Assembly (NCBI GenBank): GCA_038208905.1
Contig: JBBQYG010000001.1
Span: 7,789-71,788, forward strand
Direction of reading: 5' to 3'
Source: Candidatus Sumerlaeia bacterium
GTDB lineage: Bacteria; Sumerlaeota; Sumerlaeia; SLMS01
DNA length: 64,000 bases
The position numbers were made by a program, and so were the translations under genes. A model generated the notes under the pieces. That model searched no databases. It was not told the origin of the DNA and saw nothing but the letters and a program-made list of their open reading frames with translations. Position 1 is the first letter of the stretch. Each line of letters starts with the position of its first letter. Positions 5,618 to 55,556 of this stretch are shown piece after piece.

Positions 5618-6592
5618 TCAGAGCAGGCCCCGCGGACCATAGCGGCGCTTGCGGGCGCTGTAGGTGCTTTCATCCTCCGGCACGGGCCCCGCAGCAGTGG
5701 GTAACGCATCCAACGGTGGGGCGGGACGCGGAGCGCGCGGGGCGCTGGGGCGCAGCGCGTCGCTCGGCGGGCGATCGGATGGATTCTCGAACTCGTCGTG
5801 AAAGGCGTCCGCGGGACGCGGCCCACCGGCCAGGCCCTCGCGCCGCCACAGGTAGATATAGCCGCGGATGCGAAAGCCCTTATAGTCGGAGACTTCCGAC
5901 TGATAGGTGTTGGGCTTCACGAATCCCTGATAGTGGCTGTTGATGACGGCATCATACCCCTCCAGCGTGTTCTTGGCGAAGAGCTTGGGGTACGTGGTCT
6001 CGTGATAGCGCTTGGCAACCGTCGCCACGAAGTCGGCGATCTGAAGCCCGGCGGAATCCGTTTCGCGCTGGACCATGGGCGAGCCGATGATCGGCTGGGC
6101 CTTGCCGTGGGCGCTGAACACGGAGGAAAACTGAATCTCGGAAATCGTCTGCCGCTCGTCGTCGCGCCCGGGTGGAACGATCAACATCCCTTGGCTGCGA
6201 TTTTCCTTCAGGTGCTGGGAGATCGGCTTCATCAAGTAGTGATACGTCAGCGGGAGGAGCCACTTCGGATGAGCGGGCTTGTCGGTGGTGCGCTTGTCCA
6301 CAACGACAAGGAAGACCTTTATCTCGAGAGCGGCCGCGATCTTCTCCAGTCCCTTGCAATAGGCGACGGCCCAAGGGCGCTCCGCATTCTTGGGATGCAA
6401 CAGGTCGTTGGCGTTTACCCGTGTCTTGCCCGGCTGGTAGTTCGCTTTTTGAAAGGACTTTTGCAAACCATTGATTCGCAGCTGGAGAGTCTTCCACTTA
6501 TCCTCCTGAATGGAAACGCCGGCCAAAGTCCAAAAGGTGCCCGCCGTGGATTCGACGGGCTTGCCCGACTGCTGAAGGAAAATGAGATGCAT
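5618..6592 (-). CDS. DUF3800-like protein with a degenerate N-terminal motif and a Pro-rich C-terminal extension
   Basis: 324 aa. The N-terminal MHLIFLQQSG sits where DUF3800 has YIDESG. The C-terminal GLQIADFVATVAKRY resembles the DUF3800 QxADxxA motif. The body (about 5900-6590) is about 55-57% GC against a roughly 68% background. The last ~80 aa are Pro/Ala/Arg-rich low complexity in high-GC DNA. Confidence 0.5.
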   Translation of the reverse strand: MHLIFLQQSGKPVESTAGTFWTLAGVSIQEDKWKTLQLRINGLQKSFQKANYQPGKTRVNANDLLHPKNAERPWAVAYCKGLEKIAAALEIKVFLVVVDKRTTDKPAHPKWLLPLTYHYLMKPISQHLKENRSQGMLIVPPGRDDERQTISEIQFSSVFSAHGKAQPIIGSPMVQRETDSAGLQIADFVATVAKRYHETTYPKLFAKNTLEGYDAVINSHYQGFVKPNTYQSEVSDYKGFRIRGYIYLWRREGLAGGPRPADAFHDEFENPSDRPPSDALRPSAPRAPRPAPPLDALPTAAGPVPEDESTYSARKRRYGPRGLL

Positions 6593-48914: not shown

Positions 48915-51116
48915 ATGCTGGCCTCCGCCATGTCAGCCGCCGCCATCCCAGCCCCGACGACCGTCCCGCGCAAGAGCCCGTGGCTGGTGGGCCCCATGGT
49001 GGACATCCTGATCGGGTGTGGCGCGTGGACGATTCCCCTGCTGGTGGCGACGCGCCTGGCGGAGACCTCTCAGGTCATCGCGGTTTCCTTTTTCTTCTAC
49101 TTCCTCACGATCTTCTGCAACAATCCACACTATATGGCGACGATCTATCGCGCCTATGGCACGCGGGCGGATTTCAGCAAGTACCGGTTCTTCACGGTTT
49201 ACCTGACGGCGCTTCTGATCCTGACGGCGGTGGGGGCCCACTTTGCGCCGGTGGTGTTGCCGATCCTGTTTACGGTCTATCTGACGTGGAGCCCCTGGCA
49301 CTACACCGGCCAGAACTTCGGCATTGCGATGATGTTTGCGCGGCGGGCGGGGGTACAGCCGACGCGGACGCAACGCAACCTCCTCTACGCCGCCTTTGGA
49401 GCGTCCTACCTCGTCTGGTTCCTGTCTATACATTCCACCTTCGCGGCCAGCCCCTACATCCTGACGCTCGGCATTCCGTCCGCCGTGGCGGAGCCGTTGC
49501 GCTGGGTCCTCTTCGCCGTGTTCGTCACGACGGCGGGGCTCGCCATCGCGGGGATGTCGCGCGTGGTGGGAATGCGGGCGCTCATGCCGGCGGCGATCCT
49601 GATCTCCACCCAGTTCCTGTGGTTCGTGCTGCCGGTTTTCCTGAGCACCCTCGCCGCCGACACCGCCGCGCCGCTCTACTTCAGCACCGGGGCGCTGGCG
49701 TTCATGCACTGCGCCCAGTACCTGTGGATCACCAGCTACTACGCCCGGCGCGAATCCGACACCGGCGCGCGGCCCTCGCGGTGGAGGCCGGTTGCCTACT
49801 ATGGCGGCATGGTGGTGGGCGGCATTGCGCTCTTTGTGCCGGGGCCGTGGCTGGTCAGCCGCGTGTTCCGCTTCAACCTGGTGGAGAGCTACCTGATCTT
49901 CAGCTCGCTGGTGAACATCCACCACTTCCTGCTGGACGGCGCGATTTGGAAACTGAGGGACGGGCGCATTGCCGCGCTTCTTCTCGGCACGTCGGGTCGC
50001 GCTTCGGCGGATGGCTCCGCGCGCCGCGGCCTGCTCGTCCGCGGGGCGGGATGGATCATGGCGCCCCGGGCCCGATTTGCGCGGTACGGGCTGGCGGCGG
50101 CGATCATCGCCATCGGACTGCTGGATCAGTGGCAATACTTCCTGACGATGGACGGCGCCCCCACCGAGCGCGCGGCCCTGGCGGAGCGCCTGAACCCCTC
50201 AGACTCCCGCGCCCTGATGCGGCAGGCGCGCCAAAGCCTCGACGCCGGGCGCCCCGCGGAGGCCCTCGACCTCGTCACGCGCGTCTCCGCCCTCGGCGGG
50301 CTCAACGCCGACGCGCTCCGGCTGCGCGGCAATATCCTCGCCGGCGCGGGTCAGGACGACGAGGCATGGCTCACCTACCGCACGCTGGAGGCCGTCGTCC
50401 GCCCCGACATTCCCACGCTGGTCAACGTCGGCGTCCTCGCGGCCAGGCGCGGCGAGAAGACCACCGCCATCGCGAAGTTCCGCGCCGCCCTCTCCGCAGA
50501 TCCCGTGCGCACCGATGTGATGCTGAACCTGGCCGAGGCCCTGTATGAGCGCGGCGACTATCGCGAGGCCATCGCGCAGTACGACGCCTACATCGTGGCC
50601 GCGGGCGCGAAAGCCAAGACGCCCGGCGAGTTGCGCGGCGTCCTTCGCGCGACGCTCCGCATGGCCGCCGCACAGGCCGGCGCGGGCGAGGACGAGGCCG
50701 CCTTCGAGACCGCCCGCTCCGCCGCCCAGCTCGCCGCCGGAGCCTCGCTCCCCGACCTCGAGAGCCAGGCCCTCGAGCGCATGAGCGGCATCCTCAGCGA
50801 CGGCGGCAACGACCGCGCCGCTCTGCCGCTCCTCCAGCAGGCCGTGGGTCGCGCGGGAGAGGCCCGCGATCCCCTGCTGGCCGCCATTCAGTTCTACAAC
50901 CTGGGCACCATGCTGACGCGCATCGAAGCGCGCGAAGAGGAGGCCTGGGCCTGCCTCGTCGAGTCGCGCCGCCTCTTCTCCGAAAGCCCCGGAGCCCAGG
51001 CCCCCGCGACCCTCCCCGGCCTGATCGCCGGACTGGAAGCCACCCACCCCGTGCTCGCCACGCTCCCCGACCCCGACCGCCTCGCGCGCCTCCGCCGCGC
51101 CCTCACACAGCCATAG
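48915..51116 (+). CDS. Polytopic membrane protein with a C-terminal TPR-repeat domain
   Basis: ATG at 48915. About 11 TM segments in the first ~430 aa. The C-terminal ~300 aa are Ala/Leu/Arg-rich with TPR-like periodicity (ALDLVTRVSALGG..., EAIAQYDAYIVAAG...). Confidence 0.55.
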   Translation: MLASAMSAAAIPAPTTVPRKSPWLVGPMVDILIGCGAWTIPLLVATRLAETSQVIAVSFFFYFLTIFCNNPHYMATIYRAYGTRADFSKYRFFTVYLTALLILTAVGAHFAPVVLPILFTVYLTWSPWHYTGQNFGIAMMFARRAGVQPTRTQRNLLYAAFGASYLVWFLSIHSTFAASPYILTLGIPSAVAEPLRWVLFAVFVTTAGLAIAGMSRVVGMRALMPAAILISTQFLWFVLPVFLSTLAADTAAPLYFSTGALAFMHCAQYLWITSYYARRESDTGARPSRWRPVAYYGGMVVGGIALFVPGPWLVSRVFRFNLVESYLIFSSLVNIHHFLLDGAIWKLRDGRIAALLLGTSGRASADGSARRGLLVRGAGWIMAPRARFARYGLAAAIIAIGLLDQWQYFLTMDGAPTERAALAERLNPSDSRALMRQARQSLDAGRPAEALDLVTRVSALGGLNADALRLRGNILAGAGQDDEAWLTYRTLEAVVRPDIPTLVNVGVLAARRGEKTTAIAKFRAALSADPVRTDVMLNLAEALYERGDYREAIAQYDAYIVAAGAKAKTPGELRGVLRATLRMAAAQAGAGEDEAAFETARSAAQLAAGASLPDLESQALERMSGILSDGGNDRAALPLLQQAVGRAGEARDPLLAAIQFYNLGTMLTRIEAREEEAWACLVESRRLFSESPGAQAPATLPGLIAGLEATHPVLATLPDPDRLARLRRALTQP

Positions 51117-51178
51117 GCTTGACCGGCGACGCCCCGCCGCCGATACTCTCCCCCATCACCCCGGGGAGCGCGCCGACC

Positions 51179-51526
51179 ATGGACCACGACCACAAGAATC
51201 ACCCCCACCAGCACGGCCCAGGCTGTGGACACCCCGCCGTCGTCCACGGCGACCACGTGGACTACCTCCACAACGGCCACCTGCACCACGTGGACGGCAC
51301 CAAGGTGGAGGAACACGCCCTGGACATCACCCCCCGCAACCCCTCCGACTGCGAAGCCACCAGCCTCCACACCCCGCACCACACCCACGGCCCCACCTGC
51401 GGCCACGAAGCCGTCCCCCACGGCGACCACACCGACTACGTCGTCAACGGACGCCTCCACCACCCCCACGACGGACACTGCGACGATCATGGTCCGGTGG
51501 TGGTGTTGAAGAATATGGCGCCGTGA
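51179..51526 (+). CDS. Small His/Cys-rich putative metal-binding protein with an internal tandem duplication
   Basis: Two ~28-aa repeats: HGPGCGHPAVVHGDHVDYLHNGHLHHVDG and HGPTCGHEAVPHGDHTDYVVNGRLHHPHDG, plus a C-terminal HCDDHGP. An alternative upstream start lies at 51119. Confidence 0.5.
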   Translation: MDHDHKNHPHQHGPGCGHPAVVHGDHVDYLHNGHLHHVDGTKVEEHALDITPRNPSDCEATSLHTPHHTHGPTCGHEAVPHGDHTDYVVNGRLHHPHDGHCDDHGPVVVLKNMAP

Positions 51527-51565
51527 GGGGCGCTGCACTTTTCGCTTCATAGTCGAAAGCGCCCG
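51527..51565. terminator. Bidirectional terminator-like hairpin between convergent genes
   Basis: gggcgc tgcacttttcgcttcatagtcgaaa gcgccc with an inner cttttcg/cgaaag pairing. Flanked by T-runs on both strands. Confidence 0.4.
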
Positions 51566-51578
51566 GATTTCGAAATTC

Positions 51579-52745
51579 TCAGGGCTCGGTATCCTGGGCT
51601 GCTTTGTAGGCCTGCCGCATGTGGTGGGGCTCCTCGGGGATCGTGTATTTCAGGCTACCCTCCGCAATCATGGGGCTCAATTGATTCTCCACCAAGTATG
51701 TCTGATTCCGCCCAAGAATTCGTGCGATTTCCTCGGCCCTGAGTGGCCTCCATTCACATAGCTCGATGATGGCGGCCCGAAGCTTTTCTTTGCGGGCGCT
51801 CTTGCCCAACCCTTCCACTTTCAGTAGAATCGCCGGGGGGATAGCCCTTAGATTTTTTGGCAAGCTGCGCAGCCTATCGCCTATTGGGCCCCACTCCTCC
51901 ATCAGCGAGCCCTCGTCCTCCACTTCGAGCCCCTCGACCTCACTAGGGTTCGTGCCGACCTCACGAGGTTTCTGCCCGACCTCACTAGGTTTTGCGGGGA
52001 CCTCCTCAGATCTTGCGGCAGCGACCTGCATAGGTTTCGAAGACTCTTCGCCGCGCTCCTCCTGCAGGTAGGCAGATGGCACGTAGTAGGTGGCTGATCC
52101 TTTCCCTTTCTGGTCGAGAAGGCCTTCATCGCGAAGCCGACGCAGGGTTCTGCTGGCAGCGAGAGTCTCGGCTCCAGAAAGATTTCGAAGCGCCCGATTG
52201 CTGATTGCTCCCAGTTCACGGGCGTAGACGAGCGCCTGGCATTCATCTGCAGTTAGGTAGTGTTGCCGGAAACGGGCCAGCCACTCCACGTCCTCGCCGC
52301 CAAGCAGATGGTGGAAGAGGAGGATTAGACTGAAGGCATTGCCTGCTCGGTTGGATTCGAACGTCGGTGGCGCCAATCCGGCGTTCTGCATTTGCTCCCT
52401 CATAATGGAGATACCCCGCCCCTTGGTCTCGGCAAAGCGGGTTTCGTGAAGTACCTCGGCAATCCATGGATTTCTTGACACCGAGACGGGATCACCGAGG
52501 AGTTCCTCGGCCTTGAGCGAGTAGCCGGGATTCCTGAACTCCAGCCGGTTCCGATCCGATTGTACGGATGCTTCTGGCGCCACTTCAACGACGCCCACCG
52601 GCCGTGCAATGCCGGCGCGGCCGATGCTTGCCTGATAGCGGCAGGACCGATGAATCTCTGGATCAAGTCGTAGGCTTGATCTACGAGCCCGTTGTTGTCG
52701 TTCCAGCCGGCGTAGGCGAGGATGAACTGTCTGCGGCCGCCCCCC
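51579..52745 (-). pseudogene. Remnant of an AlbA_2/HATPase_c_4 ('RecG C-terminal-like') putative transcriptional-regulator gene. N-terminally truncated and frameshifted.
   Basis: Translation ...VQSDRNRLEFRNPGYSL...SRNPWIAEVLHETRFAETKGRGISIMREQMQNAGLAPPTFE matches HATPase_c_4. The C-terminal winged-HTH is intact. Upstream protein-like sequence (FILAYAGWNDNNGLVDQAYDLIQRFIG) sits in a different frame and is cut off by the neighbouring gene end at 52746. GC is about 55% against a roughly 68% background. A 13-nt unit cctagtgaggtcg is repeated 3 times. Confidence 0.5.
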
Positions 52746-55556
52746 CTACCTCACCCGCCATTCCTCCCCCGCGTCCTCCCCGCCCAGCGCGCCGGTTACC
52801 CTTAGCGCCAGCAGGCTTGTCGGGTGGGCGCCGTATTGGCCGGAGTAGCCGATGAGGCGGAATTCGACGGGTTGGGTGAGGGCTCGGAAGCGGGGCTCCT
52901 GGGGGAAGGCGATGCGGAGCGTTTGGTCGTCCTCCGATTGGGAGCGCGGCGTGGTGAGGAGCGCGGCGGGCTCGGCGAAGCCGTCGATGCTGCTGAACAC
53001 GGCGTAGCGTCGCGGGGCGTGCCAGCTCTGGCGGCGGATGGTGAGCGTGAGGTCGTGGCCCGCGAGCGTGAGCGGCTGCTGCTCAGGCGGGGTGATGGTG
53101 AAAGTGAGGTGCTGGCCCTGTTGAATCGCATAGGCGAGGGTGGCGGCGGCTTCCTCCGCGGGGAGGTTGACGGACCAGCGCAGTGCGTCGTCTCCGGCCG
53201 TGCGGACGATGCCCGGTCCGGCGTCGATGCCCGACCATTCGAGCCCGCTGGCGAGCACGTGGTGGCTGGTCCACGGGAGGCTCTGGCCTGGATTGGAGCC
53301 GAGGAAGCTGGCCTCCACGATGACGTTGGGCCCGCCCACGGTGTGCAGGCTAAAGGTGCGCCAAGTGGCGTCGCCGTTGGCGTCAACGACCCGCGTATAG
53401 ACAAAGGAGAGCCCCGGCTGCGTGGCCGTGCCGGCGATCGTGATTCTGGGCGGCTGGGCGGTGACGATCTCGGCGGAGAGGTCGCCGCGCAGGCGCTCGG
53501 CGATGATCTCAACCGAGAGCGGGCCATCGCCGCCGGTGGTGGCAATCGTCGCGGTGTAGGGCTCGCCATACTTCGCAACGGGAAGGAGGGGCGGCGTTTG
53601 GAAGGACGGGACGGCCCCCTCTGGTTCGTCCACGTGGTTGGTGCGCGGGCTTTCGGCGATCCAATCGAGGAGGAATTGATACTTGTGGGCGTCGGCGTTG
53701 GGCTGGGTCAGGTGCTCCAAGTGGCCCCATTGCCCATACTTGCCGAAGGGGGATGAATCGGTGAACATCACATGCGTGCGCAGGCCCTTTGACCGTGCCA
53801 TGTTCAGGTGGGCGCGATAGACATCGCGGATGCGGGGGTCGCGGTTCATCATGGAGAGGAAGGTGGTGATGCCATCGTCGCGGGCGTCTCCGCCGTCATA
53901 GCCGTCGGTGTAAAGCGACGGCCCGCCCTCGTAGGCGATGAGCGGCTTGGGAGCCGGGAACGCCGTCCGCGCGAGGTCCACGGCCCAGCGGTCAAAGCCA
54001 CCGGCAAACGCCGTTGCGTCGGGTCCGGCGCCCTCGCGCGCATCGCCAGAGAGCATGCGCTCCATCCACTCGTCATAGGCCTCCGCGATGTGGCGGTGGT
54101 TGCTGGCGCTTCCCCAATAGGGATCGTCGGCGGGGACGGATACGGGGCGCATATTCCCGCCGCCGGGGTTGAACGTCTGGGTGGTCAGGAACCACGGATC
54201 GTCGGTGCCGGCCTGCTCCTGCGCGCGCTGAAAAACCCAGTCCTGAATGCCATTGCCAAAGTAGGTGGTCACGGCGACGGCGTCGGGCTCCACGGGGGGA
54301 TTCAGCGTCGCGCCATAGGTTCTCATCTCGGCGAGGAACTCGGTCGAGTAGCTCTCGACCCCGGTGAAGATCGCCGCCACGCGGACGATTCGCTGGTCTC
54401 CGCCAAAGACCTCCTGAAACTGGCGCCACACGTCGCAGAAGCGCCGCGCGTTGAACTGAGGCTTGCCGATGCCGAGCTCGGTGGCGCGCTGCCGGGCCCA
54501 GTCCCCTTGGGCAAAGGCGTTCCCGTTGCTCCATATCTCATTGGAGTATTCGAGGTAGATCCTCCGCCCCGGCTCGAGCGGCGGATGGACGGGATTTTCC
54601 TGTGGCGATTCATAGGGGGCGACGCCATCGCCGCCGTGGAGCATCAGCAGCGCCAGGTTGCGTATATACGTTTCGTTGGCGAGATGGGGGATGGTGATCC
54701 ACAGGTCGAGTTCCGCCGCGTTGGCCAGCGCGATCACGTGCTCCCACGCGATGCCGGTCTGGCGAATGCCGGCGTGCCCGCCGCCGGGGCTGCGACGATG
54801 TTGCGGCCCCGTTTGGAACACGGCGGAGGGAAGGCGCCGATCGCCCCAGTCCTGCTCGGGATTGGCGTTGGTCTCCGTCAGGTTCATCGTGCGCAGGAAG
54901 CCCCAAGGGGCCTCGCGCAGGCGGGCGAGAAACGCGGGGTGGAAGAGCTGGCCCTCCAGCGACGCGCCCGTGGGATTCGCCGGATCGGGAAGCCACACGT
55001 CCAGATCGGTGAGGGGGTTGGCGGGGTCGAGGGCGTGGACCTCCACCCAGGTGAGCTGACCGCCCGGGGCGAACTGATACGCGCGCCGCCCGTCCACGAG
55101 CGACCCCGTGGCCGCGCCGGAGGAGTCGCCCGCCAGAAAGCCCCCGCCGTTGAGCCGCAGGTCGGCGTTGCCGCGCCACTCCAGCACCACGCGCCCGCGG
55201 ACGAGTTCCGCGCGGTCGGGCTGACCCGTGGCGGCCACGGCGCCGGGGACGTTGGTGGCAAACATCAGGGCGCGATACCGGCGACCCTCTGGCAGGGAAA
55301 TCGGCAACCCGCGCGCCGAAAAGTTTGGCTCGTTCCAGTGGAGGATCTCGCTCCCCCACGGGCCGCCGGGGGTGTACTCCATCCACACCCCGGCAGAGTG
55401 CATCCCGTTTGCGAAGTAGGGCGTGTCCCAATAGCTGACGCCGCCCGAGTGGTACCCCACTGCGGGGAGCGTTGCGGGATCGGCGGCGCCGTGGCCGCGC
55501 GTCACGAGGAGGACCAGCAGCGCGGCGAGGGCGAGGAGGCGACACAGCATGGTCAA
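52746..55556 (-). CDS. Large secreted protein of unknown function (possible carbohydrate-active enzyme; Ig-like He_PIG-type domain near the C-terminus)
   Basis: 936 aa. Signal peptide (MTMLCRLLALAALLVLLV). No catalytic motif recognised. Ig-like stretch PLLPVAKYGEPYTATIATTGGDGPLSVEIIAE. Translationally coupled to the upstream hydrolase gene. Confidence 0.5.
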   Translation of the reverse strand: MTMLCRLLALAALLVLLVTRGHGAADPATLPAVGYHSGGVSYWDTPYFANGMHSAGVWMEYTPGGPWGSEILHWNEPNFSARGLPISLPEGRRYRALMFATNVPGAVAATGQPDRAELVRGRVVLEWRGNADLRLNGGGFLAGDSSGAATGSLVDGRRAYQFAPGGQLTWVEVHALDPANPLTDLDVWLPDPANPTGASLEGQLFHPAFLARLREAPWGFLRTMNLTETNANPEQDWGDRRLPSAVFQTGPQHRRSPGGGHAGIRQTGIAWEHVIALANAAELDLWITIPHLANETYIRNLALLMLHGGDGVAPYESPQENPVHPPLEPGRRIYLEYSNEIWSNGNAFAQGDWARQRATELGIGKPQFNARRFCDVWRQFQEVFGGDQRIVRVAAIFTGVESYSTEFLAEMRTYGATLNPPVEPDAVAVTTYFGNGIQDWVFQRAQEQAGTDDPWFLTTQTFNPGGGNMRPVSVPADDPYWGSASNHRHIAEAYDEWMERMLSGDAREGAGPDATAFAGGFDRWAVDLARTAFPAPKPLIAYEGGPSLYTDGYDGGDARDDGITTFLSMMNRDPRIRDVYRAHLNMARSKGLRTHVMFTDSSPFGKYGQWGHLEHLTQPNADAHKYQFLLDWIAESPRTNHVDEPEGAVPSFQTPPLLPVAKYGEPYTATIATTGGDGPLSVEIIAERLRGDLSAEIVTAQPPRITIAGTATQPGLSFVYTRVVDANGDATWRTFSLHTVGGPNVIVEASFLGSNPGQSLPWTSHHVLASGLEWSGIDAGPGIVRTAGDDALRWSVNLPAEEAAATLAYAIQQGQHLTFTITPPEQQPLTLAGHDLTLTIRRQSWHAPRRYAVFSSIDGFAEPAALLTTPRSQSEDDQTLRIAFPQEPRFRALTQPVEFRLIGYSGQYGAHPTSLLALRVTGALGGEDAGEEWRVR

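Follow-up and report, generated by a model that had tools for sequence, protein, structure and literature searches.

A probable 5'-truncated relic of a horizontally acquired SLFN_AlbA_2/HATPase_c_4 gene, orphaned in a Sumerlaeota-like genome

The region studied here (positions 51579-52745) is part of a window of 64 kb, by which the whole stretch of DNA analysed is meant, and its gene is read from the minus strand. Mechanical ORF prediction placed a frame of 339 aa at 51579..52598 on this strand, and the numbering of this ORF was used for the residue positions of the domains. The frame is open from 52745, i.e. over 389 codons, and it begins right after the TAG stop codon of a gene coding for a 936-aa protein. 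The open frame and the upstream gene are in phase, with only that TAG between them, and a G7 run (C7 on the plus strand, 52740-52746) stands directly after the TAG or overlaps it. The features of the locus, from the upstream gene to the 3' end, were the following.

52746..52748, minus strand: TAG that ends the upstream 936-aa gene, in phase with the ORF
52551..52745, minus strand: 195-nt leader, open in the frame of the ORF and without family homology
52559..52588, minus strand: promoter-like -35/-10 pair, TTGAAG-18-TACAAT, by consensus match only
51579..52550, minus strand: coding sequence with family homology, comprising the final 323 codons and the stop codon (51579-51581), in one uninterrupted frame (blastx)
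52323..52553, minus strand: C-terminal part of the ATPase-like domain, HATPase_c_4 positions 10-88 of 89 (Pfam)
52059..52298, minus strand: first winged helix-turn-helix (wHTH), ORF residues ~101-180 (weak MarR/ArsR profiles, pLDDT, Foldseek)
51894-52058, minus strand: disordered linker enclosing the repeat (pLDDT <50)
51935..52004, minus strand: in-frame 21-nt (7-aa) tandem repeat, 3.3 copies (TRF, repeat finder and translation)
51594..51890, minus strand: C-terminal wHTH of the Fic-like_C type, ORF residues ~237-335 (PF21247 E 0.0022, pLDDT >90)
51518..51533, minus strand: terminator-like hairpin, 3' of the stop of the ORF and between convergent genes, by consensus match only

The HATPase_c_4 family (PF13749) was recognized by Pfam at ORF residues 16-92 (E 2.6e-15, 56.6 bits against a cutoff of 26). 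This segment retains the 'RNPG' and 'ETKGRGI' motifs and lacks the 'REAxVNAxMHRxY' helix that should precede them. Sub-threshold matches were obtained for a MarR/ArsR-type wHTH at residues 115-172 and for Fic-like_C at residues 298-332; the match to PF21247 stays below its threshold here, while the relative P0048 attains the cutoff, and both wHTH modules align with the relatives throughout. The original prediction, made from the sequence alone, of an HATPase_c_4 domain and a C-terminal winged-HTH was therefore right, two wHTH modules being found after the ATPase-like segment. The word 'intact', which it applied to the HATPase_c_4 domain, is nearly correct in the Pfam sense, but the structural domain starts ~90 residues earlier in the intact protein.

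In order to follow the homology along the region, blastx was run against 120 of the 464 relatives that a search of 5.8 billion proteins had returned. A single HSP was obtained, in one frame, extending from 52550 as far as the natural stop codon (51579). The start of the homology corresponds to residue 333 of P0002, the closest intact relative (656 aa, 69% identity), and the sole gap between the two proteins is one of 3 aa inside the repeat region. At the DNA level the similarity to the P0002 locus (L002) begins just as abruptly, at 52546. The encoded sequence is 40-69% identical to more than 100 family members and retains 323 of ~650 residues; of the gene, the 3' 60% survives. The SLFN_AlbA_2 domain (PF04326) was not found in the ORF by Pfam, and an HMM of the family N-terminus (332 positions) gave no match in the six frames of 52540-52800, the best score being -3.3 bits. 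Since the homology starts only at residue 333 and the N-terminal HMM finds nothing, the protein lacks ~332 residues at its N-terminus. Among these are the AlbA_2 domain and the 'IREAxVNAxMHRxY' helix, nearly invariant in the family, after which the homology begins; the preceding beta-strands of the ATPase-like fold are absent as well, P0002 residues ~240-332 having no counterpart. An extension upstream in the ORF frame ('QRxxRxxL...HRSxR'), which appeared in some blastx alignments, was rejected, as it was not significant alone and needed two 9-aa insertions.

The absence of the expected N-terminal domain, and thus the N-terminal truncation of an AlbA_2/HATPase_c_4/wHTH gene, had been predicted correctly, and truncation in comparison with full-length homologues is one of the criteria by which pseudogenes are recognized. 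The gene had also been described as decayed and frameshifted. Within the homologous part neither an internal frameshift nor a premature stop was found, and 52550-51579 is one open frame, so this part of the description has to be abandoned.

The relatives among the matches listed are almost all 610-680 aa long and carry PF04326 followed by PF13749, many of them PF21247 too, so that the architecture of the family is SLFN_AlbA_2, HATPase_c_4, wHTH, repeat linker, Fic-like_C wHTH. In the databases they are labelled 'RecG-like' or 'putative DNA-binding domain-containing protein', often also 'ATP-dependent DNA helicase RecG'. We take proteins with SLFN_AlbA_2 and HATPase_c_4 to be COG2865, 'predicted transcriptional regulator with HTH and Schlafen-like domain'. 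The genomic context was looked up for seven intact relatives; two were solitary, and five lay inside type I restriction-modification (R-M) operons, in the gene orders given here.

P0012 (L009): hsdM, hsdS, a 255-aa gene, the relative, hsdR
P0027 (L010/L011): integrase, hsdR, hsdM, the relative, hsdS, then CTD7/MC3/LmuB_C genes
P0048 (L012): hsdM, the relative, hsdS, AAA_15, HNH, hsdR
P0043 (L013): integrase, hsdM, Mrr_N, the relative
P0036 (L015): hsdR, hsdM, the relative, an Abi gene, hsdS, an OLD-like gene

In these operons the start of the relative usually overlaps the stop of the preceding gene by 4 nt (hsdM in L012 and L015), an arrangement which suggests translational coupling. The assignment to a defence-type family, made in the original prediction, agrees well with such positions and with the integrase, Abi, LmuB and OLD-like genes found beside some of the relatives. 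Embedded defence genes, or candidates for such, have been reported as frequent in type I R-M operons (PMC11411939; bioRxiv 10.1101/2024.01.29.577857, Payne et al., 'guilt-by-embedding'). A literature search for the function of AlbA_2 plus HATPase_c_4 proteins in R-M operons returned no paper on it, only general reports on R-M-embedded genes. By analogy with PrrC, the intact proteins could in our estimation plausibly act as a kind of guard beside the R-M complex. No dedicated PADLOC model exists for the family; the first ~400 aa of full-length members only cross-match pAgo-associated models, and the truncated gene gave no match. The family is rare on plasmids (just 2 weak matches) and on viral contigs (just 3 loci). 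One 349-aa member, P0030, looks like the product of an in-frame internal deletion, by which the N-terminal helix was joined to the 'IIPVRIIREALVNAVMHRNY' motif and AlbA_2 was removed; going by its sequence, short forms of the family may arise repeatedly.

The surroundings of the truncated gene are of another kind. It is flanked by the gene of the 936-aa protein and by a convergent His-rich gene, followed by TPR, DHOR, glycosyltransferase, beta-lactamase-fold and MoaC genes, all neighbours being of housekeeping type. The best relatives of the 936-aa protein come from Candidatus Sumerlaeota MAGs (55-57% identity), and its C-terminus ends where those of its orthologues end (L003, L006). The breakpoint joins the homologous part to 195 nt of unrelated sequence directly after the stop of a native gene. 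When the R-M partner proteins of the relatives were compared with the whole 64-kb window, no match was obtained; no tRNA was found in the window and no direct repeats flanking the gene. Because of these results the gene is an orphan in a core-genome neighbourhood. Rfam families were likewise sought in 51000-53200 and none was found. A comparison of synteny found in the genome collection only distant Sumerlaeota and other MAGs, whose version of the 936-aa protein shows 42-57% identity and is followed by unrelated genes, and in the metagenome collection only a third copy of the same structure; neither an empty site nor an intact cassette was found at the locus in the two collections.

The composition of the region is foreign. 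The GC content of 51579-52745 is 0.592 compared with a window mean of 0.657 (sd 0.025, equal-sized windows), and only 1.5% of equal-sized windows reach a value as low as this. In the homologous part GC3 is 0.66, against 0.86-0.89 in the neighbouring genes, which speaks for the horizontal acquisition that had been predicted. The predicted GC content of about 55% lay below the surroundings as it should, but the figure itself was somewhat too low. The lowest-GC spot of the window is elsewhere, at 5618-6592 on the minus strand (~0.566), where a 324-aa ORF has a weak, sub-threshold DUF3800 match (E 0.0023); to judge from the sequence it is possibly another foreign gene.

Two further assemblies, from other projects, cover the locus. 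L001 (ENA ERZ27246989, 13,390 bp) and L016 (JGI Ga0105044_10014863, 10,518 bp) are each 99.43% identical to the window along their entire length, with 77 and 58-61 substitutions, respectively, and neither has an indel relative to the window in 51579-52745. In the convergent His-rich gene (135 aa, 51119-51526, plus strand) 24 substitutions separate the window from L001 and L016, 16 of them synonymous and 8 nonsynonymous, with a cluster at 51199-51499. The divergence there is roughly 6-8% compared with about 0.4% elsewhere, and L001 and L016 carry identical alleles. This cluster looks like a recombination tract of ~340 bp which ends beside the 3' end of the truncated gene.

The original prediction had reported a triplicated 13-nt unit and had regarded it as a sign of decay. 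The 13-mer CGACCTCAC[T/G]AGG does occur at three sites on the plus strand (51935, 51956 and 51977, the middle copy with one mismatch), but these copies do not form a tandem 13-mer; they represent the conserved core of the in-frame repeat, the true period of which is 21 nt, or 7 codons. The translation reads KPSEVGQ KPREVGT NPSEVEG. Of 113 full-length relatives compared, 76 show significant periodicity in the linker at this position (p <= 0.01 against shuffles), and in 65 of these 76 the period is 7 or 14 aa. The family consensus of the linker is LSxxxxxLSxxxxxLS, and the individual relatives carry repeats of their own: KPSEVIA three times in P0002, LSGGV three times in P0003, TQEVLEK three times in P0004 and QNPTDKGLSVE three times in P0005. 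Since the relatives carry their own repeats at the same place, the repeat is a family trait of a disordered linker and not a sign of decay. Over the family as a whole (P0002-P0120) the periodic linker between the wHTH modules mostly shows an 'LS/PS' core, and its unit sequence varies between lineages; we know of no published explanation of it. The 21-nt period is divisible by three and a change in copy number would keep the frame. Copy-number variation was sought among the three assemblies, and there was no indel in the repeat.

The state of the retained sequence was examined through its conservation. All 44 of the 44 family-invariant residues in the retained 323 codons are kept. A relative-rate test of the Tajima type, run with ten outgroups, gave the truncated gene no more unique substitutions than P0002 (e.g. 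20 vs 25, 9 vs 23), and so the term 'decayed' does not suit it. The identities to P0002 at the three codon positions are 0.74, 0.83 and 0.43, which indicates that most of the divergence between the two arose under purifying selection. Polymorphisms among the three strains were distributed as 1 synonymous to 4 nonsynonymous in the truncated gene, and as 28:17 in the genes on either side; such a shift is in the direction of relaxed constraint but is not significant (p = 0.15).

In the AlphaFold model of the ORF the partial ATPase-like segment (residues 11-100) had pLDDT values of 49-67, while residues 101-180 and 237-335 exceeded 90. The same ATPase-like segment reached 68-92 in a control model of the intact P0002. 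This model contains before the segment ~90 extra residues of the domain, with strands and helices from ~residue 240 and a helix at 304-316, all absent in the truncated protein. Foldseek with the model of the truncated protein returned 3LMM as the top match, then wHTH proteins of the ArsR/MarR/SmtB type; a PDB sequence search with it gave no match. The models suggest that the two wHTH modules could still fold and that the nucleotide-binding-like fold is incomplete, from which we infer a loss of the ancestral function.

Taken as a whole, these data make it likely that a horizontally acquired gene with the architecture SLFN_AlbA_2/HATPase_c_4/wHTH/heptad-repeat linker/Fic-like_C has left an orphan, 5'-truncated relic in the region. 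Its AlbA_2/Schlafen-like domain is gone, together with the N-terminal half of the ATPase-like domain and all of the R-M partner genes. Either a whole cassette was inserted and then deleted in situ, or just a ~1-kb fragment ever integrated. Given the incompleteness of the predicted nucleotide-binding fold, a protein that works as the ancestral one did is most likely not produced, and the relic is probably non-functional. Its intact look downstream of the break would mean that the truncation was recent, or that there was too little time for stops to accumulate. The prediction of a pseudogenised, horizontally acquired element was accordingly correct in outline as to its foreign, truncated and defence-type nature, but not as to frameshift and decay.

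Several observations do not sit easily with a dead relic: the retained codons are without stop or frameshift and keep every invariant residue, the lineage evolves no faster than its intact relative, the promoter-like pair stands just upstream of the homology breakpoint, and the gene caller predicts a 270-aa product in L001. They are compatible with a recent truncation and also with a short protein that is still expressed. The truncated ORF might then be functional as a stand-alone double-wHTH DNA-binding protein, an exapted regulator made from the promoter-like site (52588-52559) or from the internal methionines M66/M70 (~270 aa). The 389 open codons, the high pLDDT of both wHTH modules and the occurrence of the structure in three strains would suit such a protein. 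However, the polymorphisms lean to nonsynonymous changes, and the candidate start methionines are ancestral internal residues and not new starts. The three strains differ by 0.6% only, so that an open frame is expected under neutrality. Other short forms in the databases look like gene-call fragments; P0022, for example, closely matches the C-terminal part of P0012. We consider a functional ORF unlikely. A bolder version, in which the relic lives on as a domesticated pair of wHTH modules joined by the heptad linker and is kept by this Sumerlaeota-like lineage as a regulator, while the parent family, coupled to hsdM, is a PrrC-like guard of the R-M system in which the LS-heptad linker is functional, seems to us rather doubtful.

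The original prediction had explained the missing N-terminus by a frameshift in a single gene, the N-terminal part of which would continue in a protein-like frame upstream. The peptide FILAYAGWNDNNGLVDQAYDLIQRFIG (the 'FILAYAGW...' frame) is indeed present and starts at 52726, in a frame different from that of the relic; in the leader (52551-52745) this other frame holds the 'FILAYAGWNDNN...' peptide, and over 58 codons its composition is coding-like (GC1/2/3 = 0.56/0.48/0.79). The peptide is, however, unlike the family where likeness would be expected, since '...IREAxVNAxMHRxY...PVQIxRY' should stand there. It had no Pfam match at E <= 10, a word-indexed search of 5.8 billion proteins found none sharing three 5-mers with it, and exhaustive phmmer against 1.84 billion representatives gave 0 matches at E <= 0.001. 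Comparison of the leader by tblastx and blastn with the rest of the window and with loci L002-L011 produced nothing convincing. In the sister assembly L001 a SNP at 52703 turns the Trp codon of 'AGW' from TGG into TGA, and the frame is therefore not maintained today. Even if the frameshift were accepted, ~300 residues would remain missing. The upstream frame can thus not be taken as a continuation of the gene, and its lack of homologues is the very finding which the original prediction had named as speaking against a frameshift. As far as the sequences tell, this explanation is already largely refuted, and we regard it as very improbable.

That the apparent truncation arose in assembly or sequencing, through a chimeric join or an erroneous indel, for which the C7/G7 homopolymer at the junction with the upstream gene might be blamed, is exceedingly improbable: three independent assemblies from different projects, separated by 58-77 SNPs over 10-13 kb, share the identical structure without an indel in 51579-52745, so the structure is real in the other assemblies too and is not an assembly artefact.

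A 5'-truncated relic therefore stays the preferred interpretation. It is one more defence-island gene remnant, and its presence in the high-GC genome of an uncultured Sumerlaeota-like bacterium shows that DNA of the defence-island type once entered this lineage from outside. The possible leads for work on R-M-embedded genes, namely the nesting in type I R-M operons, the overlap with hsdM and the 7-aa periodic linker, come from the intact relatives and not from the relic locus.

In comparison with known systems, the relic shares with the proteins containing SLFN_AlbA_2 and HATPase_c_4, which are represented by the structural-genomics entries 3LMM (DIP2311) and 2KYY, the HATPase_c_4, wHTH, repeat linker and Fic-like_C wHTH parts. 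It differs from them in that the AlbA_2 domain, for which 2KYY is the solved structure, and the N-terminal half of the ATPase-like domain are missing, and in that it stands alone among housekeeping genes without R-M partners. The intact relatives occupy a position like that of the R-M-embedded genes PrrC and tgvAB, between hsdM and hsdS/hsdR, whereas the copy in the window is embedded in nothing. The parallel with a PrrC-like guard is one of analogy only, and the copy in the window lacks the Schlafen-like domain, the putative effector. From a contingency (phase-variable) repeat locus the relic's repeat differs in its copy number, which is constant in the three assemblies. There is also a likeness to ordinary pseudogenes of bacteria and to the gene remnants of genomic islands. 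Like these, the relic is 5'-truncated, foreign in composition and cut off from its operon, but unlike them it has no internal stops or frameshifts and no detectable rate acceleration; it is therefore either a young remnant or still under some constraint. The locus is, in these terms, an ordinary gene remnant of a known family.
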